From Methanothrix sp. (GTDB lineage: Archaea > Halobacteriota > Methanosarcinia > Methanotrichales > Methanotrichaceae), in the NCBI GenBank assembly GCA_963682135.1, contig OY821645.1, forward strand, positions 2,432,001 to 2,496,000: a DNA stretch of 64,000 nucleotides, given 5' to 3'. The translations under genes and the position numbers were made by a program. The first letter of the stretch is position 1, and each line of letters begins with the position of its first letter. Shown piece by piece: positions 21,603 to 53,481 of this stretch. Below the pieces are notes generated by a model that did no database searches, had not been told where the DNA came from, and was given only the letters and a program-made list of their open reading frames with translations.

Positions 21603-22763
21603 ATGATAATATTCTCCAAAGCCCTGGCGGATCAGGCCACTGTTTGGGAAGCACTGCGCGCCTCTGAGTCGTGCCAGAATCTGCCGCCTGATTTGCTGCG
21701 GTTCTCGGCCCAGTCAAAACCTGTGGTGATGTGGAATTTGACAGCGCACTGCAATCTGGCCTGCCGGCATTGCTACATGGATGCCAGCCGCGAGGCCCGG
21801 GAGGAGATGTCTCTGGAAGAGGGCATACATCTGGTGGATGAACTGGCGGATATGAAGGTGCCCATCCTTATCTTTACCGGAGGAGAGCCCCTTCTCAGTC
21901 GCAATTTCTACGCCCTGGCCTTCCATGCCCGTGAGGTGGGGCTACGCACTGTCATCTCCACCAATGGAACCTTGATCACCCCGGAGGTGGCCAGGCTCCT
22001 GGCGGAGGCCAAGATCAGATACGTGGGAGTGAGCCTGGACGCGGCTAAGCCGGAGCAGCACGATGCCTTTCGGGGCGTGGCAGGAGCGCATGCCCGGGCC
22101 TTGCAGGGCATCAAAAACGCCCGCGATGCCGGACTGAAGACCGGGCTACGCATCACACTCACACGCGACAACTGGCAGGATGTTCCTGCTCTGCTCAGTC
22201 TGGCATTGCAGGAGGGTATCCCCAGATTCTGTCTTTATCACCTTGTCCCAACGGGCCGGGGAGCGGGCATGGCCGACAGGGACGTCACGCCCGAACAAAG
22301 ACGCAGCGTTATCCGTCTGCTGGCTGAGGCGGCAGAGGAGCTGAAAGGCGAAAACATCGAGATTCTGACCACTGACTCGCCTATGGATGGGGCCTATTTG
22401 CTGGAACTCTTAAAGGATGATCCCCGCAGCGAGAACGTGAGAAAGCTGCTCACCAATGCCGGAGGCTGCTCCACGGGAGTAAAGGTTGCCAATATCAATC
22501 AGCGAGGTGATGTGCATCCCTGTCATTTCATGCCTCAGGTGGTGGTGGGCAATGTGCGGGAGCGTACCTTCCGGGATATCTGGATAGATCATCCAACACC
22601 CGAGCTGCAGGGGCTGCGGGATATCAAGTCCAGACTCAAAGGCGCCTGTGGAAGTTGCCAGTACCTGGATTTGTGCGGAGGATGCCGCCAGAAGGCTTAC
22701 CACTATCATGGAGACATATTGGCCGAGGATCCTACCTGCATTCTGGAGCAGAAGAGCCTCTGA
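21603..22763 (+). CDS. ahbC: Radical SAM/SPASM enzyme of the alternative heme (Ahb) pathway, AhbC-like
   Basis: PVVMWNLTAHCNLACRHCY, RFCLYHLVPTGRG, SPASM CxxC..CGGCR; located in the hem cluster. Confidence 0.75.
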   Translation: MIIFSKALADQATVWEALRASESCQNLPPDLLRFSAQSKPVVMWNLTAHCNLACRHCYMDASREAREEMSLEEGIHLVDELADMKVPILIFTGGEPLLSRNFYALAFHAREVGLRTVISTNGTLITPEVARLLAEAKIRYVGVSLDAAKPEQHDAFRGVAGAHARALQGIKNARDAGLKTGLRITLTRDNWQDVPALLSLALQEGIPRFCLYHLVPTGRGAGMADRDVTPEQRRSVIRLLAEAAEELKGENIEILTTDSPMDGAYLLELLKDDPRSENVRKLLTNAGGCSTGVKVANINQRGDVHPCHFMPQVVVGNVRERTFRDIWIDHPTPELQGLRDIKSRLKGACGSCQYLDLCGGCRQKAYHYHGDILAEDPTCILEQKSL

Positions 22764-23296: not shown

Positions 23297-23647
23297 GTTT
23301 TATTCTCCTTGACGTACTTTTCGTGTGGTGTTTCTAATGAGATACTTCAAAGCAGAAATCACCCAAAGATTTGATCACAATGCATATTCTGCATATTTTC
23401 TATTTAAGTTTGTTTATGAAAGATTCATAACTTTTCATAACGATCGTCTGTCATGGTTTTTTTATCAGCCTCAGCACGTAAGTATCTGATTATTTTTTCA
23501 TAATTTCGTCGTTGCTCGAAACAAGCTGCAACTTAGCTCGAATTGATTTAAAAACGATGACAATATACAAACCATTATAATGAATTTGTGAAATTTAGTA
23601 TACGTGCTACAAATACTGATAAACTGAAATACTAGCGAATAATTCAT

Positions 23648-24256
23648 ACAGATGGCCGCATATTTGTTGTAGGCGATAAGCCCAGGCGAAAAAGCCGCAA
23701 GCGTGCCGATTACCTGCTTTGCTTTACACGTGATTTCAAGATCGCCGTTGTCGAAGCTAAAGCAAAATACAAGAGCCCAAGCGAAGGGCTGCAGCAAGCC
23801 AAAGAGTATGCACTGATGCTGGGGCTGAAATTCGCCTATGCCACCAACGGAGAAGGTATCGTCGAATTCGACTTCACCACTGGAAAGGAATGTTTTAGGG
23901 AAGCATTTCCTTCCCCGCAGGAGCTGTGGTCGCGATATTGCCGGGCATCAAAAATTGAGGACGAGCAGACCAAAGGACGAATTCTATCCCCCTACTACCA
24001 CTCGCCGGGAAAGGCTGCTCGCTACTACCAGGAGATTGCTATCAATCGATCGATTGAGGCCATACTGCAGGGCAAAAAGCGCGTTCTTCTGACCATGGCC
24101 ACGGGAACCGGCAAGACCTTCGTGGCCTTCCAGATCTGCTGGAAGCTTTGGGAGTCCGGCTGGAATGCGCGGGCCGAGAAGCGACGCCCTAGAATTCTCT
24201 ATCTGGCAGACAGGAATATTCTCATCGATGATCCCAAGGACAAGACTTTCACGCCC
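23648..24256 (+). pseudogene. hsdR: Type I restriction subunit HsdR (EcoAI/EcoEI-like) remnant, truncated at both ends
   Basis: TDGRI..RADYLL..AVVEAK..GLQQAKEYA nuclease motif, RYYQEIAI, MATGTGKT Walker A, LYLADRN; no start codon; breaks off at DDPKDKTFTP. Confidence 0.9.
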
Positions 24257-24342
24257 TCAAGCGCCAACATGGCAAGACCGCCGCCGCCCTGGATGCGCTC
24301 CTGCCAGCTGTGCTGGAGAGGGCCTTTCGGGGCGAGCTCTAG
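24251..24342 (+). repeat. hsdS 3'-end repeat, copy A1
   Basis: Encodes ALKRQHGKTAAALDALLPAVLERAFRGEL*; near-identical to 24637-24732 and 26605-26697. Confidence 0.93.
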
Positions 24343-24364
24343 GCCAAGATGCGGATATATAACC

Positions 24365-24634
24365 ATGAGGACTGAAATATCCATGATGAGTGAAGATGCC
24401 AGCATCGTCATCACAGTCGATGACATAAAGACATTTGAAAGGCTAAAGCTCATCTCACAGATGGCTCCTGTCAAAGAAATAATCAACTCCTTTAAGAGGA
24501 AGTACGGCTGCGGCCTCAAAGCATTCGAGGATCGAATAGCACGCCTTCCGGAGGACTTCGAGCGCTGGGACGATTTTATTGAGTGGAAGGCCTATGCAGA
24601 CAGCTTGAGAGATCTTGAAAAGAGAGAAATATAA
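24365..24634 (+). CDS. Small antitoxin-like protein (cassette A-1), possibly 3'-truncated
   Basis: ATG 24365 in the frame of the chimeric 23816 ORF; FKRKYG..FE..EDFERWDDFIEWKA motif typical of small archaeal TA partner proteins. Confidence 0.6.
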   Translation: MRTEISMMSEDASIVITVDDIKTFERLKLISQMAPVKEIINSFKRKYGCGLKAFEDRIARLPEDFERWDDFIEWKAYADSLRDLEKREI

Positions 24635-24636
24635 GG

Positions 24637-24732
24637 CTCGACGCCCTCAAGCGCCACCAGGCACAGACCGCCGCCGAGCTGGACGCGCTCCTTCCGGCTG
24701 TACTGGAGAGGGCCTTTCGGGGCGAGCTTTGA
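24637..24732 (+). repeat. hsdS 3'-end repeat, copy A2
   Basis: Encodes LDALKRHQAQTAAELDALLPAVLERAFRGEL*. Confidence 0.93.
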
Positions 24733-24779
24733 GGAAAAAGCTTACATCTTGCATTTGATGATACTATTACGAGGATCTC

Positions 24780-26078
24780 ATGGTTGAAGGAATCACGCGC
24801 ATCTCTGTGAAGGGTTTTAAGTCCCTGGCTGAAGAATGCTCCCTTGAAATTCGCCCTCTGACGATATTGGCAGGTGCTAACAGCTCAGGTAAGTCGAGCA
24901 TAATGCAGCCGCTCTTGATGATGAAGCAGACTCTGGAAGCGAGTTACGATCCAGGCCCGCTCTTGCTTGACGGTCCCAATGTTCGCTTCACATCAGCAGA
25001 TCAGTTTCTTTCTCGATCGGGTGGCCAAAACCAGGGGCAATTTAGCGTGGGGCTTGAGATCGATGGCGCGATTTCATTTTACGAAACCTTCATTCGCAAG
25101 GCGCAAGAAGGAATGGAGATCGCTGAAATATCATATAAAGTTAATAGCAAGACCACCATCCTACGGCCTGAAATGACACGAGACGTGATTATATCTCATC
25201 AACAGGAGAGAGGATTGCCTAAAGATTATCAAAATAAAAAGTCAGAGTTTCTTAGGGGCTCTCTTAAAATAGAACGGGATAGATGCTTTTTGGAGCAAAA
25301 ATTGAGAGGAGATATAGTATTAAGTTTTCGTGATTGTAATTTAAGATTAAATTTTTTTGGGTCGATTTTAAGTCTCGTTCATTTGCCCGCACTGCGAGGC
25401 AACCCCGAAAGAAACTATAAAAGGACCTCTGTTGGCCCCAGGTTTCCAGGAACCTTTGAGATTTATGCCGCCAGTATAATTCACAACTGGCAATCAACCA
25501 AAGATCCACGACTCAATTATATGGGAGCTGCCCTTGAATTACTGGGTTTGACCTGGAAGGTCGGCTCAAGACAGGTCGATGATGTGAGTTTTGAGGTGAT
25601 GGTCGGCCGTCTCATTCATCAAGAAGGAAAAGATACCAATGATTTAGTTAGCATTGCAGATGTTGGATTTGGTGTATCCCAAACCTTGCCGATTCTTGTC
25701 GCACTTCTTGCAGCAGAGCCTGGCCAGATGGTCTACATCGAACAGCCCGAGATTCACCTGCACCCGCGCGCCCAGATGGCAATGGCTCAGATCCTGGCGG
25801 AGGCTGCTAACCGGGGCGTCCGAGTCGTGGCGGAAACACATAGTTCCCTATTGCTCCTGGGCGTTCAATCTCTTGTAGCCGAAGGCAAGCTCTCTCCAGA
25901 TAAGGTCAAGCTTCATTGGTTTAAGAGAAGGCCGGAGGACGGCATTACAGAAGTCTCCAGCGCTGACTTAGACAAAGCAGGTGCCTTTGGCGATTGGCCG
26001 GAGGATTTCTCCTCGGCGGAGATGGACGCAGATACTCGTTATATTCATGCCGCGGAAACGAGACTGGAGTCCAATTGA
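24780..26078 (+). CDS. ABC-type AAA ATPase (AAA_15/AAA_21, DUF3696-like C-terminus), defence-associated (cassette A-2)
   Basis: Walker A GANSSGKS, GFGVSQTLP signature, IEQPEIHLHP, ETHS, C-terminal WPEDF. Confidence 0.88.
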   Translation: MVEGITRISVKGFKSLAEECSLEIRPLTILAGANSSGKSSIMQPLLMMKQTLEASYDPGPLLLDGPNVRFTSADQFLSRSGGQNQGQFSVGLEIDGAISFYETFIRKAQEGMEIAEISYKVNSKTTILRPEMTRDVIISHQQERGLPKDYQNKKSEFLRGSLKIERDRCFLEQKLRGDIVLSFRDCNLRLNFFGSILSLVHLPALRGNPERNYKRTSVGPRFPGTFEIYAASIIHNWQSTKDPRLNYMGAALELLGLTWKVGSRQVDDVSFEVMVGRLIHQEGKDTNDLVSIADVGFGVSQTLPILVALLAAEPGQMVYIEQPEIHLHPRAQMAMAQILAEAANRGVRVVAETHSSLLLLGVQSLVAEGKLSPDKVKLHWFKRRPEDGITEVSSADLDKAGAFGDWPEDFSSAEMDADTRYIHAAETRLESN

Positions 26079-26602
26079 TGTCATCTGGGGATTCAAAGCG
26101 GTTGGTCATTGACGCCTCCGTTGCTACATCTACTGGCGAGAGAGGTGTGCGGGGAGAACGGTGCCAGGCCTTCCTGAGGATTATGATTGATGATACATAC
26201 CATCGCTTGGTGATGACGCGAGAGATCGGTGCTGAATGGGATATACATTCTCATCCCTTTGCTCGCCGCTGGCGAAGAAGCATGAATGCCAAGAGAAGAG
26301 TCGATCGGCCAAATGTCGATCATGATGACGTATTTTGCCTGAAGATTGAAAGAGCAAGTCAAACTGAAAAGGCACTTTGCGCTATGAAGAAGGATCTTCA
26401 TCTCATACAAGCTGCAAAAACAACAGACAAACGTGTTATTTCTCTGGACGATACTGCCAGAAACTATTTTTCTGAAGTCTCAATCCAGGTGGGCGAGCTG
26501 AGGGACATTCTGTGGGTAAATCCTGTTAATGATGACGAGACGCCGACAAAATGGTTGACGGACGGGGCTCCGAACGAGGAGCAACGACGACTTGGCACAT
26601 GA
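26078..26602 (+). CDS. PIN-like protein translationally coupled to the ATPase (cassette A-2)
   Basis: TGATG overlap; LVIDASV N-terminus, KDLHLIQAA..VISLDD acidic PIN-type pattern. Confidence 0.65.
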   Translation: MSSGDSKRLVIDASVATSTGERGVRGERCQAFLRIMIDDTYHRLVMTREIGAEWDIHSHPFARRWRRSMNAKRRVDRPNVDHDDVFCLKIERASQTEKALCAMKKDLHLIQAAKTTDKRVISLDDTARNYFSEVSIQVGELRDILWVNPVNDDETPTKWLTDGAPNEEQRRLGT

Positions 26603-26604
26603 CC

Positions 26605-26697
26605 GACGCTCTCAAGCGCCACCAGTCCGAGACCGCCGCCGCCCTGGATGCGCTCCTGCCGGCTGTGCTGGAGAGGGCCTTTCGGGGCGAGCTTTGA
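26605..26697 (+). repeat. hsdS 3'-end repeat, copy A3
   Basis: Encodes DALKRHQSETAAALDALLPAVLERAFRGEL*. Confidence 0.93.
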
Positions 26698-26803
26698 AGT
26701 AGCCGCTCGCATCATTTTGCATTTCCGGGATTACTCCGCAAGAAGAATACTTTCGCCCGGCACGCGGTGAGCTTTTATGGCATTAACTCACTTGTCCCTT
26801 TGA

Positions 26804-27346
26804 ATGTTAAAACAAATGCAGCGAGACGCCATTTTGCTCTCGCTGATGAATGAGATGAGAGCAAAAGGCAGTTGGTGCGGCGAGACTCACATCCAGAAAT
26901 CTGTGTATCTCCTGCAAGAACTGCTGGATGTACCAATGAATCTCGAGTTCATACTCTACAAGCATGGACCTTACTCATTCGATCTGGCCGATGCAGTCAC
27001 CGCCATGCGGGCGGATAACCTGCTTGAGTATAAATTGCGTCGTCCCTACGGGCCAAGCCTTATCCCTACAAAAACAGGCCAGAATTTCCTGAATCAGTAC
27101 CCTAAGACGCAGGAGAAATACGCCGAAAGAGCGCAATTTGTTGCCGAGAAGATCGGGAAGATAGGTGTTGCAGAGCTGGAGCGTCTGGCCACTGCCCTTT
27201 ACGTCACACTCAACGAGAAATGTGCAGGAAATTCACGAGCAATCTTGATTACGAAGCTGAAGCCTCATATCAAAATCGAAGAGGCCGAAAAAGCTCTGGA
27301 AAACGTTGATGCCATGATAAAAGAGGTTGCTGAAAAAGGATTGTGA
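26804..27346 (+). CDS. YwgA/SocA(Panacea)-like wHTH protein (cassette A-3)
   Basis: ETHIQKSVYLLQE..FILYKHGPYSFDL..ELERLAT pattern. Confidence 0.6.
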   Translation: MLKQMQRDAILLSLMNEMRAKGSWCGETHIQKSVYLLQELLDVPMNLEFILYKHGPYSFDLADAVTAMRADNLLEYKLRRPYGPSLIPTKTGQNFLNQYPKTQEKYAERAQFVAEKIGKIGVAELERLATALYVTLNEKCAGNSRAILITKLKPHIKIEEAEKALENVDAMIKEVAEKGL

Positions 27347-27360
27347 AGTGGGCTGCATAC

Positions 27361-27571
27361 ATGAATTTCATGGTTGTTCTTTAGGAAGCAGAAGATGGTG
27401 GCTACATAGTAAGCTGCCCGGCACTTCCCGGATGCCGCTCCCAGGGCGATAGCATTGGAAGAAGCCTTGGAGAACATCAAAGAGGTGATAGAAGGCTGCG
27501 TGCAGTCTCTGGCGGAAGAGCGAACGAGGCTGCTGGGCGCTCCTGGTAGAATCGTAGAAGTAGCAGTCTGA
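27361..27571 (+). pseudogene. hicB: HicB-family antitoxin pseudogene
   Basis: MNFMVVL*EAEDGGYIVSCPALPGCRSQGDS, then a frameshift, then EEALENIKEVIEG..; one internal TAG and one frameshift. Confidence 0.8.
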
Positions 27572-27772
27572 TTTCCGATGCTGAAAATGGCAGACGCTGA
27601 TTCCTCCGAGATTTATATTGACTACAGGCCGTATTTCTTTCGCGTCTCGCTCCATGCCTTCTCTCTTGCGGTTTCCAGCTCCATCAGGTCATCCTTGGTA
27701 AGGGAAAGCTCCTCCTTGCATCTCTGAAGGATCACAGATATATCCTATTGCTGCCATAACGTCACCTTAGTT

Positions 27773-28351
27773 ATGTATGCAATCATTGCTTGCGGCATCT
27801 TTGAAAAGGAGATCGAAGCTCTGCGCAGAGAGCTGGGATTTCCCTTTGAGGCCCACTATCTGGGAGCAGGCCTGCACGTAGACTTCGACGATCTCAAAGG
27901 AGCTCTGGTGGCAGAGCTGGAGAAGTGCCGGAAAAATGGAAATGAGGGCATGATAGTAGTATACGGCCAGTGCCACCCAAATATTGAAGAAATCTTAAGG
28001 CCCTACCATGCGTCGCTTGTAGCGTGCCAGAATTGTGTGGACGCCTTCATCACCCGCAAGGGAATGGAGACGAAGGCCAGGGATGGGCTCTTCTTCTACC
28101 TCTCTCCCGGCTGGCTGGATGCCTGGAAGGACATCTTCCGCCGCCTGAACTGGGACCAGGAGGCAGCCAGGATGCAGATGGGCTCATTTCGGGGATTTGT
28201 TTACCTCGACACTCTGAAAGATGCGCAAGAACGCGAGGAAGAGCTATTGGAATTCTTTGATTTCACTAACCTGCCCTTCGAGATTATGCCCGTAGATCTG
28301 GGCTACTTCAAATCCCTCATAGTCAAGGCCAAAGAAAGATTGGAGGATTGA
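27773..28351 (+). CDS. DUF1638-family protein
   Basis: IIACGIFEKE, GLHVD, YGQCHP, NCVDAF, YLSPGW. Confidence 0.75.
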   Translation: MYAIIACGIFEKEIEALRRELGFPFEAHYLGAGLHVDFDDLKGALVAELEKCRKNGNEGMIVVYGQCHPNIEEILRPYHASLVACQNCVDAFITRKGMETKARDGLFFYLSPGWLDAWKDIFRRLNWDQEAARMQMGSFRGFVYLDTLKDAQEREEELLEFFDFTNLPFEIMPVDLGYFKSLIVKAKERLED

Positions 28352-44154: not shown

Positions 44155-44580
44155 ATGGATAAGAAATGCATATTGATTATTGACGATGATAGAGGCATAC
44201 TCGAGGGCTTCAAGCTAATCTTAGAGCGGAAAGGTTATCTAACTGATACGGCAGAGACCGGCAGTGAAGCCATAGAAAAGGTGCAAAGCAATTATTTTAA
44301 CCTGGCATTAATCGATACCAAGCTTCCTGATATGGATGGTACTGCTCTTCTCTCGGAATTTCGCCAGCTTAATCCGGAGATGAAAAAGATCATCATTACG
44401 GGTTTTTCCACTCGAGAAAATGCCATTCTATGCCTGAACCTGGGGGCAGACGCATATTTAGAAAAGCCTGTAACTCCTGGAAAATTGCTGGAGTTCGTTG
44501 CAGCGAAATTGGCAGAACAGGAATATGAGATCAAGTATCATGAGGATACTGTGAATAAGTTGCTCCAATCTCGCAAGTAA
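44155..44580 (+). CDS. Single-domain response regulator (receiver)
   Basis: ILIIDDD, LIDTKLPDMDG, ITG, KP; ATG 44155 after GGGGGAG (the track start overlaps the tRNA). Confidence 0.9.
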   Translation: MDKKCILIIDDDRGILEGFKLILERKGYLTDTAETGSEAIEKVQSNYFNLALIDTKLPDMDGTALLSEFRQLNPEMKKIIITGFSTRENAILCLNLGADAYLEKPVTPGKLLEFVAAKLAEQEYEIKYHEDTVNKLLQSRK

Positions 44581-44606
44581 TTTTATTAACCTAAATAATA
44601 TACAAA

Positions 44607-44786
44607 TCCTCCGTCAGCCCATAAAGCCGGGACCCCGTCGATCAGCCCGTCCGTGGCCTCGATCTGGCGCAGCAGGGCAGTTTTTTCGTGAGGAGTGCCG
44701 GCTTGGGGGAGCCGCTTGTGCGAGAAGCGAGCAATCTCTGCACCAGGGAGACCATGCGGTCATGACGAGCGATGTCGGCGGGATCC
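44607..44786 (-). repeat. Type IIG R-M 3'-end repeat, copy B1 (distal, truncated)
   Basis: CCGTCAGCCC..TCGATCAGCCCGTCCGTGGCCTCGATC..GGCAGTTTTTTCGTGAGG..CACCAGGGAGACCATGCG core shared with B2-B7. Confidence 0.9.
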
Positions 44787-44844
44787 TCCAATAGTTTAAA
44801 ATTATTTTTTAAGGTAGGATATAACTCTCTCTGCCCTGATCAAA

Positions 44845-46575
44845 CCCAACCTCCCGGATCAAGTAGACACATTAACCGGTCGATCTCAATTATAAAGCTC
44901 CTATTTTGAAAAACAACCCTGACTAAGCCCACTTAGCGAAAGATATTTATACTATATGCGCCTACTATTATTGAGGCGCATAATGCAAACCACTCGACGA
45001 ATCAAAGTGAAAAATGGGATCGAATATTGGTACGAAGAAACACCTTACTATGACAAGGAGAAAAAACAGATCAGACATAAATCAAAATATTTAGGAAGAA
45101 ACGTAGATGGCCAGCCGGTCCGGATGCGTTCCGCCCCTGACGAGGTCAAAGAGAAGACGAAAAAGAAAACAGAGGCGATCAAGTCATCATTTGATTATGG
45201 CTCCATATTCGTTCTTCAGTCAATTATGGAAGAGCTTCATATGGATCGCTATCTGGAAGTTTTGTTGTCTCCTTCGGAAGTGTCCATGGTTCGCGCATTG
45301 GCATTTAACCGGATTATACGACCTACTGCAATGAGGAATGTAGATTCATGGTACGAAGGAACCTCTCTTGCCCTCGAATCTCCGCAAATCAATCTTACCA
45401 GTCAGCGAGTAAGTGAGCTTCTCGGTCGATTGGGTGAAAGCAATATTCCAGACAGATTCATGTCCCAGCTTATCGAAGGAACCGGTACGAAAGACACACT
45501 CATTTACGATATTACGAGCCTGTCAAGTTACTCTCAACTCATCAATATTCTTGAGTACGGGTACAATCGTGATGGCGAGTCTCTTCCGCAAATCAATCTG
45601 TCCCTGATTCTGGATAAGGATAAAGGGATACCCGTGATGTATGACATCTTCCCCGGCAGTATTTCCGATGTCAGTACGCTTTCCGGCACTCTAAAAAAGA
45701 TAAAAGCGCATGGCATCCAAAATTATGTTGCTGTGATGGATTGTGGATTTTTCAGCTTGAGCAACCTTCGCGAGCTGATGACGAATAAAATCTCATTTAT
45801 TATGGCGGCCAGATTGCAGTTGAATGATTTGAAGCACCTGCTGACGGAAGTGCAAAAGGATCTTGATGATGTAAAATATCTCCACAAGTTTAACAAGGAT
45901 CCCATTTTTGCCAAACCAATTTCATATATTATTGATTCAATTGAAATCAGGGGGTATGTTTATTATGATCCCAAATTAGAGCAAACCGAGAAGCAGACAC
46001 TCCTAAGCAGACTCTATGATATTCGTGAAGAGTTGCTCAAGGTGCGCTTGAATAAGAACAGTAACCCCCACGTAGTTTTCAAAGATAAAGCACACGGATT
46101 TGGAAACTTCTTCGACTGGAATGTTATGGATAATCGCTTTGAAGTTACGATAAAACAAAACGCAGTTGCACAAAGAATGAACAAAATGGGCAAGTATATT
46201 ATATTCTACTCAGGAAACTTTGACGAGATGAAGTGCCTTTCTCTCTATCGCGAACGCGATGAAATTGAAAAGAGCTTCAAGGCATTGAAAAGCGAAATTG
46301 ACATCCTTCCATTGAATACTCATGGCGAAGAGACAACAAGAGGATTCATTTTTATCGCTTTCCTGAGTCTGATTATAAGGTCACGACTGATAAATATGAT
46401 GAAGGATGCAGAGATACTAGACAAATATTCTGTTGAACTTCTTCTGCTGCAATTGGAGAAATTAAGAAAAATTGCTCTTGCAGACGGACAGATAATAGTC
46501 ACCGAAATGACAAAAAAACAGAGGGAAATTCTTCAGGCGCTAGACTTGTGCGCCTGAACTTTTCGGGAGGTTGGG
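44845..46575 (+). mobile_element. IS1634-family insertion sequence
   Basis: Perfect 12-bp TIR CCCAACCTCCCG (44845-44856 / 46564-46575) and 6-bp TSD ATCAAA (44839-44844 / 46576-46581). Confidence 0.92.
44956..46557 (+). CDS. IS1634-family DDE transposase (start may be 44983)
   Basis: YDITS, YGYNRD..LPQIN, D.GF, YRERDEIEKSFKALK. Confidence 0.9.
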   Translation: MRLLLLRRIMQTTRRIKVKNGIEYWYEETPYYDKEKKQIRHKSKYLGRNVDGQPVRMRSAPDEVKEKTKKKTEAIKSSFDYGSIFVLQSIMEELHMDRYLEVLLSPSEVSMVRALAFNRIIRPTAMRNVDSWYEGTSLALESPQINLTSQRVSELLGRLGESNIPDRFMSQLIEGTGTKDTLIYDITSLSSYSQLINILEYGYNRDGESLPQINLSLILDKDKGIPVMYDIFPGSISDVSTLSGTLKKIKAHGIQNYVAVMDCGFFSLSNLRELMTNKISFIMAARLQLNDLKHLLTEVQKDLDDVKYLHKFNKDPIFAKPISYIIDSIEIRGYVYYDPKLEQTEKQTLLSRLYDIREELLKVRLNKNSNPHVVFKDKAHGFGNFFDWNVMDNRFEVTIKQNAVAQRMNKMGKYIIFYSGNFDEMKCLSLYRERDEIEKSFKALKSEIDILPLNTHGEETTRGFIFIAFLSLIIRSRLINMMKDAEILDKYSVELLLLQLEKLRKIALADGQIIVTEMTKKQREILQALDLCA

Positions 46576-46900
46576 ATCAAAGCATCCTGAGACATTGAAG
46601 ACAAACCACTGATCGAATCGTCATAATCAGCTCTATTACGATGATTTCGCAAACGCCTTAATTCTAAGGCCAGTTTCCTTCCATTACTTCTTTTGCCCAA
46701 GCAGTAGAGCTGGCTAATGACATAACTATGGACGCTTTCATCGGGAATGATCTTATGCTCCTCATCTCTAAGATGGTTTCTAGCGGTACAAAAGGCCGCG
46801 TAGTATGCCCTGCTGATTGATGAGCGAAGCCTTGCCTCATCTTTCTCGTCGGATGATGCCAGACTTTTTGCCAGGCTCAAGTAGCGACACCATTCGAAGC

Positions 46901-47233
46901 CTATTCGTACTCCACCTGGATGAGCAGCTTAGAGTCTGACGCATCTGAGACATTGAGCAACCAATTATCGTCCAGTTGATCCAATTTATCAATGGCATCT
47001 TGCGGTGATAGATCGGTGCAGATATAGACGACCAACTGTTTGTCGCCGATCTCGTCTGGATCAGTCACTACTTCTAAGAATAGGATCTCTGAAGGGAAAA
47101 AATTTCGTATTCGACTGTAGGCCTCCATTAGCAAAGGCAAAAGATGCGGATTGCTGCCAACAAAGTCGTACACATCTGCCGCGGTCTTCAGTGTATACTT
47201 GTTATTTAGGTGTACCATGTCATGATTTCGCAT
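46901..47233 (-). CDS. Hypothetical partner protein upstream of HEPN (antitoxin-like)
   Basis: ATG 47233 after GAGGAG; directly abuts the HEPN gene. Confidence 0.65.
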   Translation of the reverse strand: MRNHDMVHLNNKYTLKTAADVYDFVGSNPHLLPLLMEAYSRIRNFFPSEILFLEVVTDPDEIGDKQLVVYICTDLSPQDAIDKLDQLDDNWLLNVSDASDSKLLIQVEYE

Positions 47234-47358
47234 GGTATCTCCTCGGTCTCCAACATCCGCCTCAGTGATCATCAGAATTCCTCTTCGTCGGCATGAAATA
47301 AATAGATTTCATCGGCAAATCAGTCTGCCATATCCAGGGTGTCTACCTGGGACTTCCG

Positions 47359-47514
47359 CTTCCCCAATCCCGATCTCCTCTTCCGGCAGACCGTAAAGCT
47401 GGTCTCCCGTCGATCAGCCCGTCCGTGGCCTCGATCCGGCGCTGCATGGCAGTTTTCTCGTGAGGCTTGGCAGCTTCGGGGAGCTGTTTGTGCGAGAGCG
47501 AGCATTTTATCCAC
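47359..47514 (-). repeat. Type IIG R-M 3'-end repeat, copy B2
   Basis: Same core; reads DKMLA.., frameshifted. Confidence 0.9.
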
Positions 47515-47590
47515 TTTGGATTATCATTTTAACGATCGCAAGGTTAAAATTGCTGCAACCCATTAGTAGGAATAGGGGGAATAGTGCACT

Positions 47591-47851
47591 GTGCCGTTTA
47601 CCAAAGTTGATGAAAAAGGCAGAATGGTTCTACCTAATGAAATCAGGCGCAAGATGAAGATCTCACCTGGTGATGAATTTGTTGTGGACGAGGTCGGGCC
47701 GGACACAATTCTAATTAGAAAAGTGGATGTAAGATCCATGATTCATGATGCGATTGAGCGTGCCAAGTCTGTAGACCTCGATAAGCTCCAAAAAGAGATG
47801 GACGAAGAGGGAAACAGAGTTGCCAGAAAGATGTACAAGGTTCTTGATTGA
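47591..47851 (+). CDS. AbrB/MazE-family antitoxin (VapB)
   Basis: TKVDEKGRMVLPNEIRRKMKISPGDEF. Confidence 0.9.
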   Translation: MPFTKVDEKGRMVLPNEIRRKMKISPGDEFVVDEVGPDTILIRKVDVRSMIHDAIERAKSVDLDKLQKEMDEEGNRVARKMYKVLD

Positions 47852-48233
47852 CTCCAATCTATTTATTGCGGCGGTAAAGAGCGGTTGGACGAATAGTTCA
47901 AAGCTTCTCTCTGTCCTCCTGGATGGCTCTTTCGAATTGGTTGCAAACAAATCTTTGTTTGCGGAGTATGAGAAGTATGCTCAGCAACTTGATGCACAAT
48001 ATATCTTCTATTACATGAAAAGCAGGATTATTTTGACTGATCAGTCCGAAAACGAGGTGCAGAGATGCAAGCCATTCTTTCCTGAAAGTCAGGCCGCTGA
48101 TGTGGTTCATGCTGCAACCTGTCTTCATACCGCAGCGGTCTTAATCACAAATGATAAACATTTTGATAAAATAAGAGATGCAGGCCTCATAAGAGTTTGG
48201 AGCATCTCCGAGGCTATTAAGAATCTACTTTGA
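47820..48233 (+). CDS. PIN-domain toxin (VapC); start may be TTG 47844
   Basis: FLIDSNLF, ADVVHAATCL, LITNDKHF. Confidence 0.88.
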   Translation: MPERCTRFLIDSNLFIAAVKSGWTNSSKLLSVLLDGSFELVANKSLFAEYEKYAQQLDAQYIFYYMKSRIILTDQSENEVQRCKPFFPESQAADVVHAATCLHTAAVLITNDKHFDKIRDAGLIRVWSISEAIKNLL

Positions 48234-48265
48234 ATATCTCAAACTGAATTATCTTCAACCATGTT

Positions 48266-48500
48266 CTATCCTGCATCTTCCACAATCCTGATCTCCTCTT
48301 CAGTCAGCCCGTATAGCTCGTAGACCAGCGCGTCGATCTGTCCGTCCGTGGCCTCGATCTGCCGCTGCAGGGCAGTTTTTTCGTGAGGCATGGCAGCTTC
48401 GAGGAGCTGTTTATGCAGGGCGAGCATCTTCTCCACCAGGGAGACAAGCGAATCGTGGCGGGCGACGTCGGCGGGGTCGGAGAAAGCGATGGTGCGGATT
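48266..48500 (-). repeat. Type IIG R-M 3'-end repeat, copy B3 (longest, frame intact)
   Basis: IRTIAFSDPADVARHDSLVSLVEKMLALHKQL..EKTALQRQIEATDGQIDALVYELYGLTEEEIRIVE, the typical C-terminus of Eco57I/TaqI-like fused R-M enzymes. Confidence 0.92.
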
Positions 48501-48578
48501 AGGAAAATTTCTGCTTGAAATATTTCATGGGTCGCGTAGGTCCAGACTGTTGCAGTTCTCGGCAAGTTGGCAAAAGAA

Positions 48579-48872
48579 TTAGATTTTGAGCTTGCCCCTT
48601 GCCTCCAGCAAAGACACTAAACTCTCTGCTGACATAGGACATTCTATCAGATCATCGAGTTCGCGGATCGACTCAAGATGCAACTCTTTTTTCATAGCAT
48701 TCAAGAGTCGATCCTCGTATTCATCCAGGCCGTGACTGATCCAAGTAAATATGCTGGTCTTTTTTCCACTAACATATAATGTATATTTTATATGTTTTGA
48801 TTTGCCTTTTTTTGGAGAGAATCCTTTTTTCGTCAGAGATGCTACGATCTTCCTGGTCTTATACGCTGGCAT
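48579..48872 (-). CDS. HicA-like toxin
   Basis: SLTKKGF..SKHIKY..TWISHG.. dsRBD-like HicA pattern; overlaps the upstream gene. Confidence 0.7.
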   Translation of the reverse strand: MPAYKTRKIVASLTKKGFSPKKGKSKHIKYTLYVSGKKTSIFTWISHGLDEYEDRLLNAMKKELHLESIRELDDLIECPMSAESLVSLLEARGKLKI

Positions 48873-49923
48873 TTGACTTTTCTACTCCAAACGAGGCGAT
48901 CAATTCCTTTCGAAAATCCATAGCATCCCGGCTAAGCAGTTCGAGGCCGGTTTCCACATAATCTTCCCATAGAATTTCTATTTCTTCGTTCAAATCTTCA
49001 ATTGCAGCCTTGAGGGTCGAGCCATATCCTCGCAAATGGAACTTATCATTTGAGACCCAATATTGATCATCCTCGTAGATCACTTCAAGCAAAATAGGCA
49101 CCTTCAAATTCAGCGATCTTCCCTTCATTCTGATCTTATCCAACGGCACCAATTCCAGATACTCGATAGATTTTTCGTTCACCAGGCGGAGGGCATACTT
49201 GCCTCCCTTCTCCAGTGCCATTATGCCTCTAATGAGAACCAAACGACCAATATTTTCAATGATCCTGTCTTCAAGGTCTTGGGCATATGTACAGGTAACT
49301 ACGCCTTCAAAAGTATCTATTTGAAAGCTCCTTCTCTGATCTACCCTCACTTCCATCAGTCGTCCAACAACTGATTTCTCAACGTTTTCCGGCTGCCTGG
49401 AAAGCACATTTCGAAATACATGCTTATGAGATGGCTGCAACCTCATTATGTCATGTTTTCCAAAGCCAAGACCAACATTATATTCAGATTGCTCATCCGG
49501 CCATATCGCATCAAGCTCATGAAGTACTCTAGTAAGCCGATGCTCATTTTTCATAGTCTCTGAAAGCGCGTGGGCAATATCCCTCTCTTGGGAGACGTTG
49601 ACAAGGATTTTATCCGCGATCAAAAGTGCCTTTTCACCATAAGTCACACCGCCGGGAAGACACATCTGCGAATCCGAAATCATCAATTCAGCTTCGACGC
49701 TACCGATATGCATTCCACTGATGACCAGTTCAGCTTTCTCCTTAACACTGTTTGGGAAATCCCCTGCTTTGCGTGTAGGGTTTCCTTCCAGCTCATCAAT
49801 GATATAAAAAAGAATATTCTGCAATCTCTGAAATATTCCTGCTACAAAAAGGGCTGAAATTTGACCATTATTCCTGGTCTTTGACTCAACTAACAATTTT
49901 ATCCGTTTAGTTTCATCGCCCAT
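48859..49923 (-). CDS. 354-aa protein with C-terminal HicB-like domain
   Basis: C-terminal YWVSND..RGYGSTLKAAIEDLNEEI..WEDY resembles the HicB RNase-H-like core. Confidence 0.6.
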   Translation of the reverse strand: MGDETKRIKLLVESKTRNNGQISALFVAGIFQRLQNILFYIIDELEGNPTRKAGDFPNSVKEKAELVISGMHIGSVEAELMISDSQMCLPGGVTYGEKALLIADKILVNVSQERDIAHALSETMKNEHRLTRVLHELDAIWPDEQSEYNVGLGFGKHDIMRLQPSHKHVFRNVLSRQPENVEKSVVGRLMEVRVDQRRSFQIDTFEGVVTCTYAQDLEDRIIENIGRLVLIRGIMALEKGGKYALRLVNEKSIEYLELVPLDKIRMKGRSLNLKVPILLEVIYEDDQYWVSNDKFHLRGYGSTLKAAIEDLNEEIEILWEDYVETGLELLSRDAMDFRKELIASFGVEKSNASV

Positions 49924-50000
49924 AGGTCCACCGTTTATTTATGCCCTTATTTCTACATATCCTTATCGTTTCAGTTTCTGAAAGTTCTTTATTGAAGTTT

Positions 50001-50190
50001 CTACTTGTTCGCCTTCTCCACAATCCCGATCTCCTCTTCCGTCAGCCCGTAAAGCCGGAACCCCGTCGATCAGCCCGTGCGTGGCCTCGATCTGTCGCTC
50101 CAGGGCAGTTTTTTCGTGAGGCGTGGCAGCTTCGGGGAGCTGTTTATGCGAGAAGCGAGCATTCTCTCCACGAGGGAGACCATGCGATAT
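50001..50190 (-). repeat. Type IIG R-M 3'-end repeat, copy B4
   Basis: Same core; ends ..GLTEEEIGIVEKANK*. Confidence 0.9.
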
Positions 50191-50197
50191 GCCATTT

Positions 50198-50584
50198 TTA
50201 GTTCTGTTTTCCCACAGATCTCACAACATTGATAAAATCTTCGATTTGAATATTCGAGATGTCAAGCGCGGCAAGAAGCCCTTCATCATCCATTAAGCGC
50301 TTCATCAGCCGTCTCGTGACCTCTGAGTCGTATGCTTTATCGTGATGATCCAAATTTATAAACACGACGGCGTTTTCAAAAATTAAATAAACGACAACGA
50401 AGTGCTCTGAAATATGTAATGCTCTCAGTCCTCTGAGATTATGGCTCTTGGGCTCGCCTATCTCTGGATTTTGCCGAATACACTTCATTTTATTTATTAC
50501 TTGAAGCTTAAACGTTCTATTTTTACCAGTTAATTTAGAAAATTTCTTGTCAAAATAACCGGTAGTAATGGATTTAAATGCCAT
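50198..50584 (-). CDS. RelE/ParE-family toxin
   Basis: FDKKFSKL..NPEIGEPK..LRGLRALHI..FVVVY..LDHHDKAY. Confidence 0.85.
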   Translation of the reverse strand: MAFKSITTGYFDKKFSKLTGKNRTFKLQVINKMKCIRQNPEIGEPKSHNLRGLRALHISEHFVVVYLIFENAVVFINLDHHDKAYDSEVTRRLMKRLMDDEGLLAALDISNIQIEDFINVVRSVGKQN

Positions 50585-50603
50585 TTGTGATCAAAATTGA
50601 GAT

Positions 50604-50777
50604 TTATAGGCGCATCAAGTGGGCTTCCATCTCCTCGTCATCCTCAAAGACTGTGTAGCGTCCCCCAGCAAAATCCTTTAGACCTTTCACAATACCTTCA
50701 ATGAAGTCTTCCTCTTTCTTTGCTTCTTTATTTGGGATAACTTCCATTTCTGCATTAAGAGGATGTGAACATGCCAT
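50604..50777 (-). CDS. 57-aa putative RelB-like antitoxin (absent from the ORF track)
   Basis: MACSHPLNAEMEVIPNKEAKKEEDFIEGIVKGLKDFAGGRYTVFEDDEEMEAHLMRL*, directly upstream of relE. Confidence 0.7.
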   Translation of the reverse strand: MACSHPLNAEMEVIPNKEAKKEEDFIEGIVKGLKDFAGGRYTVFEDDEEMEAHLMRL

Positions 50778-50975
50778 GCTCTTATGATATCGTCATGATC
50801 GTATTTAAATCCATTGTGCTCTGAGGGCTTTGCTGCATCTCTCCCAATGTTATCCTTCTAGTTTATGCATCTGCAAATATTCGTATTGGAAACCAACATC
50901 ATCCTCATCAAGGCAATCTATTTCTTCCTTATCACGGCGTCGGTCTGTCGTGCCTCGTTTTTCATTGAGTCGCTT

Positions 50976-51157
50976 TCGCCTCCACAATCCCTATCTCCTC
51001 CTCCGTCAGCCCGTATAGCTCGTAGACCAGGGCATCGATCTGCCCGTCCGAGGCTTCGATCCGGCGCTGCAGGGCAGTTTTCTCGTGAGGCGTGGCAGCT
51101 TCGGGGAGCTGTTTATGCGAGATGCGAGAAATCTTTGCACCAGGAGGGCCATGAGAT
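50976..51157 (-). repeat. Type IIG R-M 3'-end repeat, copy B5
   Basis: Same core; ..GQIDALVYELYGLTEEEIGIVE. Confidence 0.9.
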
Positions 51158-51186
51158 CCGCTATCAATCGTTTCTCAAGTTCATAA

Positions 51187-51594
51187 TCATAATAGATTCA
51201 TCAGTTCTCTTGTGGTAAAAACTTTGACGACATCCTGCCTCTTGAAATGTCCATCGTTGCTCCAGATCGGACAGTCTAAATACATTGCCAGAGCCAGGAA
51301 TGGAGAGTCATCGATATCAATTTCAGACATCACTTCAATTGCACTATCTTTGAAGGGGGCCAAGTCTTCAAGAGGGATAAAACTGATTTTGCTGAAGATA
51401 AAATCTTTTAAATAATCAAAGGACTTTTCATCTAGCTTTGACTTGGATAATAATTCGTCTTTGTGTCTTTCTATCTCACGATTGGCATATTCAACTGTAT
51501 ACATTTTAAAAGGTGATACGGATATTATATCTCTGGTCAAACCATTCCTTAGGAGAGAAGATATCAGGATATTCGTATCCGGCACTATCTCCAT
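51187..51594 (-). CDS. PIN-domain toxin (VapC)
   Basis: VPDTNILISSL, DIDDSPFLALA, IWSNDGHF. Confidence 0.9.
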   Translation of the reverse strand: MEIVPDTNILISSLLRNGLTRDIISVSPFKMYTVEYANREIERHKDELLSKSKLDEKSFDYLKDFIFSKISFIPLEDLAPFKDSAIEVMSEIDIDDSPFLALAMYLDCPIWSNDGHFKRQDVVKVFTTRELMNLL

Positions 51595-51824
51595 CCTAAT
51601 TTCTCCATTATTTCCCGCTTCATCTTGTGGTCTAATTCATTCACGTCATCTTCAGAAAGATCGCTTTTTTCCAGGAGCGTGTCAAAAATTATTGAAATGA
51701 ATATATCATTTTTTATATCTTCTAGAATATCCCGCTCTATTCTTTTTCGCACTAGTGCATCCAAATCTCTGTTGGCCTTTATCGATAACTCAATCTCTCG
51801 GGGAAGCTCAACTTCTATCGACAT
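51585..51824 (-). CDS. Antitoxin (VapB-like)
   Basis: Acidic 79-aa ORF overlapping the PIN start; LLEKSDLSEDDVNELDHKMKR tail. Confidence 0.75.
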   Translation of the reverse strand: MSIEVELPREIELSIKANRDLDALVRKRIERDILEDIKNDIFISIIFDTLLEKSDLSEDDVNELDHKMKREIMEKLGWR

Positions 51825-51864
51825 TTTATTGCCCGTATCCTAAATGCTGGAAAAGAATATAAAA

Positions 51865-52062
51865 CTACTTGCTCGCCTTCTGCACAATCCCGATCTCCTC
51901 TTCCGTCAGCCCGTACAGCCGGTCCCCCGTCGATCTGCCCGTCCGTGGCCTCGATCTGGCGCTGCATGGCCGTCTTCTCATGAGGCGTGCTGGCTTGGGG
52001 GAGCTGCTTGTGCGAGAAGCGAGCAATCTCTGCACCAGGGAGACCATGCGATCATGACGGGC
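51865..52062 (-). repeat. Type IIG R-M 3'-end repeat, copy B6
   Basis: ARHDRMVSLVQRLLA..(shifted frame)..LYGLTEEEIGIVQKASK*. Confidence 0.9.
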
Positions 52063-52549
52063 TAGCATTCCAAAGACCTATCGTTTCCCGCGCATCTTTC
52101 AGCGATACAATTTTGAGCTGAAAGCCATATGGAACCTGATAGTTCAGAAGAATTTTGTCGGTGGTTATGAGGTAATTCATATTATACGCCAGAGCATAAC
52201 CAAGATGAGTACGATCAGTTGGCTGCAATCGATCTTTGCATTCGTCCACAAGATGCCAGCAGACTTCAGCTACCCTATTTGTAGGCGGCAGGAATCTGAT
52301 ATCAAGTTTCCTCCATAGCTCGATCAAAGAGGCAATCGTCTCCATTTTGTGAGGATCGCTTCCCTCTTTTTCGCGAGTCAGACTCTTAAAAACAGTTTCT
52401 GCAAGCACTGAGAATGGGACACAAAGCTCCAGCGTGGGGTGATTATCGATGTGGTCGAGAAGGCCGATTGCAAGCTGCGACTTTCTATCTTTTTTTTCAG
52501 TGCTAACAGAATAAAAGAAGATATCAGCGTCTATGGCAACGTGATTCAT
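52052..52549 (-). CDS. PIN-domain toxin
   Basis: VAIDADIF, E, DRTHLGYAL, LITTD. Confidence 0.85.
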   Translation of the reverse strand: MNHVAIDADIFFYSVSTEKKDRKSQLAIGLLDHIDNHPTLELCVPFSVLAETVFKSLTREKEGSDPHKMETIASLIELWRKLDIRFLPPTNRVAEVCWHLVDECKDRLQPTDRTHLGYALAYNMNYLITTDKILLNYQVPYGFQLKIVSLKDARETIGLWNASPS

Positions 52550-52704
52550 TTCTTGCCAAAAGCCTTCTCTATTCTTTCCTTCGTCGCCTTATCTTCTTCT
52601 TCGGTAACAGCCCATACGATCCTGCCGTTGATATCCACAGCACCGCCGTAAGGCAACTGATTCTTGTCCGAGTCATAGATCTGCCCGACTACATATTCTG
52701 CCAT
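52546..52704 (-). CDS. 52-aa putative antitoxin (absent from the ORF track)
   Basis: MAEYVVGQIYDSDKNQLPYGGAVDINGRIVWAVTEEEDKATKERIEKAFGKK*; ATGA overlap with the PIN gene. Confidence 0.65.
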   Translation of the reverse strand: MAEYVVGQIYDSDKNQLPYGGAVDINGRIVWAVTEEEDKATKERIEKAFGKK

Positions 52705-52776
52705 TCATTTCCTCGATCTGAGTTTGGCTTTTTTCGATAATATAGTTTTCGCCGGTTCATTTGTCTGCCTGCGATC

Positions 52777-52979
52777 CTTCTACGATTCTTATCTCCTATT
52801 CCGTCAGCCCGTACAGCTCGTAGACCAGGGCATCTATCTGCCCGTCCGTGGCTCGATCTGTCGCTACAGGGCAGTTTTTTCGTGAGGCGTGGCAGCTTCG
52901 GGGAGCTGTCTATGCAAGGCGAGCATCTTCTCCACCAGGGAGACAAGCGAATCGTGGCGGGCGACATCGGCGGGGTCGG
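52777..52979 (-). repeat. Type IIG R-M 3'-end repeat, copy B7 (proximal)
   Basis: DPADVARHDSLVSLVEKMLALHRQLPE..; degenerate, with stops and a frameshift. Confidence 0.9.
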
Positions 52980-53045
52980 TGCAGAATGGGAGCAGCTATG
53001 ATACGGGATCAAGAAATGGATATACAGACTTTCGACTATGATTTT

Positions 53046-53161
53046 ACCACAAAGGCACAAAGCTCACAAAGAACGCACAAAGACTAATCGGCAAAATATA
53101 TCCTAACCAGAATTTAATAATTTTCTTTGTGAGTCCTTTGTGCGCGTTGTGTCTTTGTGGT
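53046..53161. repeat. Imperfect inverted repeat built from tandem CACAAAG units (REP-like)
   Basis: ACCACAAAG-GCACAAAG-CTCACAAAG-AACGCACAAAG, ~40-nt spacer, then CTTTGTGAG-TCCTTTGTGCG-CGTTGTGT-CTTTGTGGT. Confidence 0.8.
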
Positions 53162-53259
53162 GATAGTAGTAGTAAGTACTAACACCCCATCCTGCCAAAA
53201 TATATTTGACAATTATGATACTAATTTCCTTCGACATCGACTGCCTCCTCCTCTTTGAC

Positions 53260-53481
53260 CTATCTCTTGTCGGCCCGGCATTCCTGCTTGTGGTAGACAT
53301 CCCAGCCCAGCGCCTCAAAAAAGGGATTGATGAACTCCGTTCTCAGCTCGGTCTCATTGTACTGACTGGATCGATAGATGTCCTGGTCACGCTCGAACTT
53401 CTCCATCAGCTCGAGGATCTTTGCTGGTGCCTGTGCTTGTGTCGGTGCCTCTGCCTGCAATTTCTTTGCCCTCCGGCGCAC
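53260..53481 (-). pseudogene. N-terminal remnant of a type IIG (Eco57I-like) R-M enzyme
   Basis: APAKILELMEKFERDQDIYRSSQYNETELRTEFINPFFEALGWDV, then a premature stop. Confidence 0.8.

Follow-up and report, generated by a model that had tools for sequence, protein, structure and literature searches.

Repeats matching the 3' end of hsdS separate toxin-antitoxin-type cargo at a former type I restriction-modification locus of Methanothrix

Restriction-modification (R-M) operons reportedly host variable defence cargo. It is an open question how defence and toxin-antitoxin (TA) genes accumulate next to R-M systems when no mobility genes are present. It is addressed here using a 64,000-nucleotide stretch of DNA (the window) from Methanothrix sp. 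(assembly GCA_963682135.1, contig OY821645.1, positions 2,432,001 to 2,496,000), in which three copies of a type I hsdS 3' end, referred to as tails, alternate with TA-type genes. Four described systems come closest to this arrangement: Rhs arrays, R-M insertions with long target duplication, the tvr (SpnIV) locus, and sedentary chromosomal integrons. For Rhs arrays, Jackson et al. (2009, PMC2935791) propose homologous recombination via circles, with slow turnover; each unit is preceded by a piece of the conserved 3' region of the parent gene, the old unit is shunted downstream, the swapped tip forms one protein with the core, and the core fragments vary in length. In long target duplication, as set out by Furuta, Abe and Kobayashi (2010, PMC2853133), an R-M unit is inserted at an arbitrary target in a single event, lies between long direct duplications with an empty site in a relative, and carries no mobility gene; no archaeal case passed their filter. 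The tvr locus, according to Kwun et al. (2018, PMC6265443), is a type I hsdS locus with direct repeats, excision and reintegration via circles, and a TA pair; target-recognition domains (TRDs) are shuffled, the recombinase TvrR is encoded, and some excision proceeds without this recombinase. Sedentary chromosomal integrons hold compact, reorderable TA/defence-type units with one recombination repeat each, according to Darracq et al. (10.1101/2024.07.02.601686). The main text of Payne et al. (10.1101/2024.01.29.577857) does not contain the words "recombination", "hsdS" or "duplication", has one unrelated "repeat", and does not describe tail repeats; the abstract of PMC13617665 deals with TA acquisition and erosion and does not describe the route considered here. 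A literature search, which did not cover subscription journals and supplements, found no report of arrays in which cargo lies between R-M gene tails.

We propose, with a rough probability of 0.7, that the array was built by Rhs-like displacement, in which homologous recombination acts on the conserved hsdS end, the first junctions arise via microhomology, and no dedicated enzyme takes part. The complete 3.04-Mb genome (G000; the other G numbers denote genomes of relatives) holds exactly three copies of the repeat, all direct, the next-best blastn match having an E value of 0.06. The copies R1 (24251..24342), R2 (24636..24732) and R3 (26604..26697), on the forward strand, correspond to the last 92, 97 and 94 nt of hsdS; they are 88-92% identical to each other on alignment, in line with the three direct repeats claimed by an earlier reading of the window from its sequence alone (the sequence-only reading). 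Their G+C content is 69-70% versus 42-53% in the flanks, and they encode alike the peptide ..ALKR.....AA.LDALLPAVLERAFRGEL*. The same reading had assigned the repeat to the C-terminus of HsdS. On its own, the 31-aa peptide has no match in Pfam; the profile support comes from full-length HsdS proteins of relatives, such as the 404-aa open reading frame (ORF) at locus L006, which terminates in the repeat and matches PADLOC Specificity_I (E 2e-49) and Pfam Methylase_S. Because intact genes in relatives end in the repeat sequence, the repeat can be assigned, by sequence comparison, to the C-terminus of type I HsdS.

The tails are preceded by a remnant of hsdR (23647..24257, forward strand) that has lost both ends and is joined to tail 1 at a 7-bp microhomology. 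This stub, also claimed previously, matches PADLOC REase_I (E 1e-57), covers residues ~37-241 of the 780-aa protein of a relative, is the sole hsdR match of the genome, and is 89% identical to the intact hsdR of G095 and G093. In G095, hsdR-hsdM-hsdS lies between the same flanking genes as in the window: a radical SAM/SPASM gene on the left (21603..22763, forward strand; Pfam Radical_SAM and SPASM), which is syntenic with G095 and G087 and lies upstream of hsdR in relatives, and a DUF1638 gene on the right (27773..28351, forward strand; Pfam). Therefore, the locus of the window is a former type I hsdR-hsdM-hsdS operon, from which hsdM and hsdS were deleted and hsdR was reduced to a stub. Intact operons also precede arrays elsewhere. 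No functional type I system is encoded at the locus, which retains only the hsdR stub, and no TRD was found there, as the sequence-only reading had stated; the single Methylase_S match of the genome is ~475 kb away. The array is eroded and decaying. The left flanking gene is the last of an operon of the hemC-cobA/hemD type. At loci L021-L108, the chromosomal flanks occur in mixed combinations (radical SAM with DUF1638 or c57; an HD gene with kdpA or trk), which suggests rearrangements at these loci.

The 161-nt hsdS end was searched against 105 genomes of the family, and the regions around the matches, together with those around the matches of a further search, were fetched. Matches were found in 43 of the 105 genomes, including 33 of the 58 other genomes of the genus. 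In total, 93 tail matches were obtained; the counts leave out 15 from other genera and one duplicate match at a contig end. Of the remaining 77, which belong to 38 genomes of the genus, 10 are located on an hsdS gene and 67 are orphans, and two to four tails are present at 23 of 46 loci. The array units vary in number and order across the 38 genomes, and the ten genomes represented at the window's locus show ten different unit strings. Cargo in the relatives includes HicBA, TumAE, AAA+PIN, HD+DarG-C-like and OLD+UvrD units, among others. Thus, intact hsdRMS operons followed by chains of tails and strain-variable cargo, which had been anticipated, are indeed found in relatives. One complex derived tail allele (a 3-bp deletion with clustered changes and a small palindrome) is present with different flanks in G013, G015, G016, G024, G084, G093 and G108, as a result of either gene conversion or templated mutation.

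One argument for exchange at the tails comes from comparison with G087, whose flanking core genes are 91-95% identical to those of the window. With T for a tail, B for an ATPase-PIN cassette and C for a DarG-C-terminal-like cassette, the string is hsdR'-T-hicBA-T-tumA-T-HD,C in G087 and hsdR'-T-tumA-T-B-T-C in the window. The last tail of G087 combines the left junction of R2 with the right flank of R3 and is an empty site for cassette B; the hicBA unit of G087 is bounded by two tails at the place occupied by only R1 in the window, and here the window is the empty site. Comparison of G087 and the window thus reveals a duplication longer than 30 bp for which a relative has the empty site. One landfill-metagenome contig, from a mixed sample and another strain, also joins a tail with the R2 junction to the flank of cassette C. 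Across species, the end of a given cargo joins the tail at a fixed common base, and what follows the tail differs: the left junction at the PIN end recurs in 10 tails with 6 right flanks, and those at the HD core, the hicA end and c19 in 7, 7 and 4 tails with 6, 4 and 4 right flanks, respectively (right-flank classes are automatic clusters, and class D0 pools several units with a common leader). Cassette B precedes C in G000, G084 and G093 and follows it in G005, G086 and G102; therefore, deletion from a single ancestral order cannot explain all arrays. Tails with the same downstream flank resemble each other in their right half (permutation p 0.0003-0.002 for three windows of columns), and the tail before the OLD-type gene of G076 has a native left and a foreign right part. 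Tails of the same genome differ by 0.193 versus 0.237 between genomes (34 versus 1857 pairs; 15 low-scoring tails, below 40 bits, were excluded from the distance and boundary statistics). Identity between AAA genes does not follow that of the core genes (rho 0.11 over 72 pairs, which are not independent).

These footprints also bear on the idea that the tails are serial relics, passive scars of successive hsdRMS-plus-cargo islands that were each reduced to the hsdS end and never reused. The first tails do arise by deletion within hsdR-M-S in the window, G011, G087 and G108, and the orphan tails retain a coding-type mismatch bias at the third codon position (0.097/0.091/0.205), both as expected of such scars. 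However, hsdR, hsdM or hsdS sequence is found directly upstream of 0 of 31 internal tails, and the recurring left junctions with different right flanks, as well as the empty and filled sites, need crossovers inside the tails. The empty/filled pair largely refutes this explanation, and we regard it as improbable.

Under displacement, the conserved hsdS 3' end of the former operon would act as a docking site. A unit of tail plus cargo may first be cut free by an illegitimate, microhomology-guided join of a cargo end to a position ~85-125 nt upstream of the hsdS stop; one homologous crossover between this unit and a resident tail would then duplicate the tail and shift the older cargo downstream, and a crossover between two tails would remove a unit, both as suggested by the footprints. 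No dedicated recombinase would be needed. Repetition of these steps would generate the arrays, which differ in number and order between species, and subsequent decay would account for the present locus, where hsdM, hsdS and most of hsdR are deleted and tumE, HD and hicAB are lost or broken. The footprints are read directly from the genomes, and from them we infer circles and rates.

The junctions are compatible with such an origin. Where the native continuation is known, microhomologies of 4-8 bp are found at differing positions (7 bp at hsdR/R1, 4 bp in G011, 7/8 at the antitoxin end), which argues against one site-specific crossover. The R1-hsdR junction is probably a secondary ~60-bp slip of a G087-type deletion and, for this reason, is not counted as independent evidence. 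Class U14 was rejected as a junction after native hsdS sequence was found; its G093 member was reassigned to an hsdS gene and its G108 member to a ~180-nt orphan.

The tails are of similar length: the distance from the tail start to the end of the stop codon is 80-126 nt in 49 of 52 well-scoring orphans and, counted by upstream class, in 25 of 28. With edges spread evenly over a 1.2-kb gene, ~4% would be expected (the classes are not fully independent). The longest orphan has ~180 nt and is the only one that keeps more than 141 nt; in the sister genus, the start of several orphans lies near -140 to -150. Eight intact hsdS alleles are ~68% alike at -140 to -101 and 92-95% at -100 to -81, and therefore the edges cluster where strong homology sets in. 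This may be the point at which recombination intermediates break; alternatively, shorter units may fail to reintegrate and longer ones may be trimmed. Cutting at the homology edge by the mismatch endonuclease NucS was considered and rejected, as the genome has no PF01939 match.

The narrow length range would also be expected if the tail were a selected cis-acting element, such as a transcript boundary, a protein-binding site or a small translated HsdS helix, with deletions creeping up to its edge; moreover, the commonest junction sets an in-frame ATG over the PIN stop codon in some copies. Against this, 18 of 53 orphans are frameshifted and in-frame ATGs are not enriched in the tails relative to other frames, and a conserved tail peptide was rejected on the same grounds. 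Folding of the orphans gives z about -0.1 for both RNA and DNA versus shuffled sequences (DNA z<-2 in 1 of 53), no Rfam family matches the tails, and a TATA-like stretch appears to lie after tail 1 and not inside it. A sigma-70 promoter scan returned chance-level counts, with a bacterial model that is unsuited to an archaeon. We consider a cis-acting element about as unlikely as the relics.

Tails of other kinds are present in the same genome. A second array, on the reverse strand at 44573..53481, consists of a 5' remnant and seven tails of a type IIG R-M 3' end together with TA-type cargo (PIN/ParE/HicA/HEPN-like) and a DDE transposase; the architecture is the same on a different tail, as the sequence-only reading proposed for 44.6-53.5 kb. 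More IIG tails, two of them in pairs, are located outside this array at G000:C1:1158773-1162609, 1109124-1109978 and 627738-627834. A 38-nt inverted repeat (87% complementary) lies within the IIG remnant at 53046-53161 of the window, with similar sequence at G000 2814040 and 2817269. Beyond the window, at G000:C1:1090795-1092892, a 364-aa gene is followed by a RelE-like toxin/antitoxin pair and then by a 228-bp copy of its own 3' end (95% identical). The end of this gene, which we presume to encode an EVE-domain nuclease, provides a third type of tail, arranged in the same way. Short repeats of another kind occur in TA-rich clusters at G000:C1:24000-36000 and 462000-465300. A tyrosine recombinase acting in trans (XerA-like) on a short core in the ACGCCCT/AAGCTCG region, as TvrR does at tvr or IntI at attC, is the least probable of the explanations considered: the same 7-mer occurs both at the hsdR junction and, in some relatives, behind the PIN stop, many tails are bounded by an inverted pair of 6-7 bp, GCTCG stands at the left edge of 22 of 53 orphans, and one of the four PF00589 matches of the genome is stop-free, but none of the four lies within 300 kb of the array, no integron integrase is found at the array, the window copies form no stable or attC-like hairpin (folding z -0.5 to +1.2), the junctions spread over ~45 nt at different bases, and the IIG and EVE tails, of other sequence, behave alike in the same genome.

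Several observations weigh against displacement by homologous recombination at the tails. Some junctions, including the hsdR junction of G087 and the hicA end, show no clear microhomology, and the model does not predict that tail lengths fall in a narrow range. Linkage of the left tail half with the upstream flank (p 0.003-0.005) was rejected, since significance is lost (p 0.10-0.11) once junction-proximal columns are dropped; genome relatedness inflates all of the permutation p-values and the same-genome tests. Most cargo families track core divergence (rho 0.87 for Ywg, 0.62 for tumA and 0.95 for c19), and exchange must therefore be slow. The contigs of the near-identical run X3, which break at the repeats, contain neither a circle nor a deletion joint; the run data comprise contigs only, from 4 of 23 sequencing runs. 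"Goes back" joints occur in assembled contigs of mixed metagenomes that cannot be assigned to a source genome, and the route by which units would pass between cells is something we infer.

The cargo of the window is located on the forward strand, with one exception noted below. Cassette A (24383..24634, start set from homologues) encodes a TumA-like antitoxin, whose TumE partner was deleted at the tail 2 junction, a junction also present in G087; in G014, G082 and G100, the partner is TumE (PF20126, E 7e-22). Cassette B comprises an ABC-type ATPase (24780..26078; AAA_21/AAA_15, weak DUF3696) and a PIN-fold protein (26078..26602) whose stop codon abuts tail 3. The latter falls in ESM Atlas PIN clusters (0.93-0.97), has an AlphaFold pLDDT of 78 and, by Foldseek, resembles HARP/VapC PIN proteins (best E 3e-4, TM ~0.5); a PIN fold is accordingly predicted by structural modelling. 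The Menshen system consists of NsnA, NsnB and NsnC together. Cassette B was rejected as Menshen: the ATPase has NsnB as its best PADLOC match (E 1e-57), but the partner has no PADLOC match and there is no third gene. In homologues of the ATPase gene (24780-26078), the start and end are conserved and the middle appears swappable, with blastn gaps at query ~1410-2040 in G017, G016 and G023.

Cassette C (26804..27346) encodes a 180-aa protein that was presumed to be YwgA-like in the sequence-only reading. The SocA label given there found no support, as the protein has no Pfam match at E<=1; its match is to DarG, in the C-terminal half (positions 169-314 of the 338-position profile; 43 bits versus a cut-off of 250). 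DarTG requires a full DarG with macrodomain and the DarT toxin, and cassette C was rejected as DarTG because the DarG match is partial and below the cut-off and the partner in relatives is an HD protein. The ~1.36-kb HD gene found upstream in relatives is missing here. The HD-less form, with a common linker (window 26760-26803), is present in G000, G006, G081 and G084, and the nearer relatives G087, G085 and G093 keep HD; this distribution reflects either lateral exchange or an old polymorphism. Cassette C is followed by a hicB pseudogene with a stop and a frameshift (27362..27602), including ~30 nt that match the sequence after hicB in relatives with hicBA, and by a reverse-strand remnant of a PIN_2/antitoxin cassette (27607..27727; 80% identity over 121 nt), which is whole in G013 and G078. 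The antitoxin-like ORF, the ATPase and PIN-like pair, and the HicB pseudogene predicted earlier were all recovered. Only the ATPase-PIN pair looks complete in this genome. The cargo is of TA or abortive-infection type and is probably either selfish or defensive; within the earlier term "defence/TA cassettes", "TA" applies to most of it, "defence" is a putative function, and "cassette" means a homology-bounded unit and not an integron cassette.

How, then, does the locus compare with the four systems? As in Rhs displacement, the unit is preceded by a 3' fragment of the parent gene, and content and order vary between relatives at one locus; unlike in the Rhs account, the repeat carries the stop codon, the cargo consists of separate TA-type genes, the fragments are confined to 80-126 nt, and the parent gene need not persist. 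The insert between long direct duplications, the empty site in a relative and the absence of a mobility gene are shared with long target duplication, but here the R-M gene end is a recurrent target, arrays build up, and the insert has no R and M genes. In contrast to tvr, there are no TRDs, no recombinase was found, and cargo is shuffled instead of specificity. As with integrons, the units are reorderable and have one repeat each; the array is nevertheless not an integron or CALIN, with no integrase and no hairpin attC, and its repeat is a gene fragment. The arrays thus work like Rhs C-terminal displacement and leave the footprint of long target duplication, and they are a member of neither, because the cargo genes encode proteins separate from that of the parent gene, and because the R-M gene serves as target instead of insert.

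A wider search of GTDB with this HsdS end covered 79 loci, from the best 80 of 121 confirmed matches; 64 of these loci are bacterial, and 14 of the 64 have a second tail copy of 43-141 bp. The intervening bacterial ORFs have a Pfam match in 5 of 14 cases (TIR, PIN7, AAA_33/Zeta, DUF4185 and amidohydrolase), and therefore the cargo extends beyond defence.

Should the tails be no more than slow scars, they would represent an evolutionary footprint and not a system. Taken at face value, the sequence comparisons point to an integrase-free way of stacking and swapping TA-type genes, and they add to the described cases an archaeal genus in which empty and filled sites are reciprocal, units are permuted in order, and a single genome holds three tail types unrelated to one another. 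Tentatively, the 3' ends of R-M and defence genes might constitute a general, still-active, integrase-free analogue of integrons, an extension that we consider conceivable and short of probable. Tails of ~90-120 bp, kept up by conversion and through selection acting on mobile units, would then serve as docking sites to capture, reorder and spread TA/defence genes between species, would outlive the R-M gene, and may partly explain the growth of defence islands in archaea and bacteria. They would also provide a sequence marker: anything between two R-M tails would be a candidate mobile defence/TA unit, as integron cassettes proved to be.

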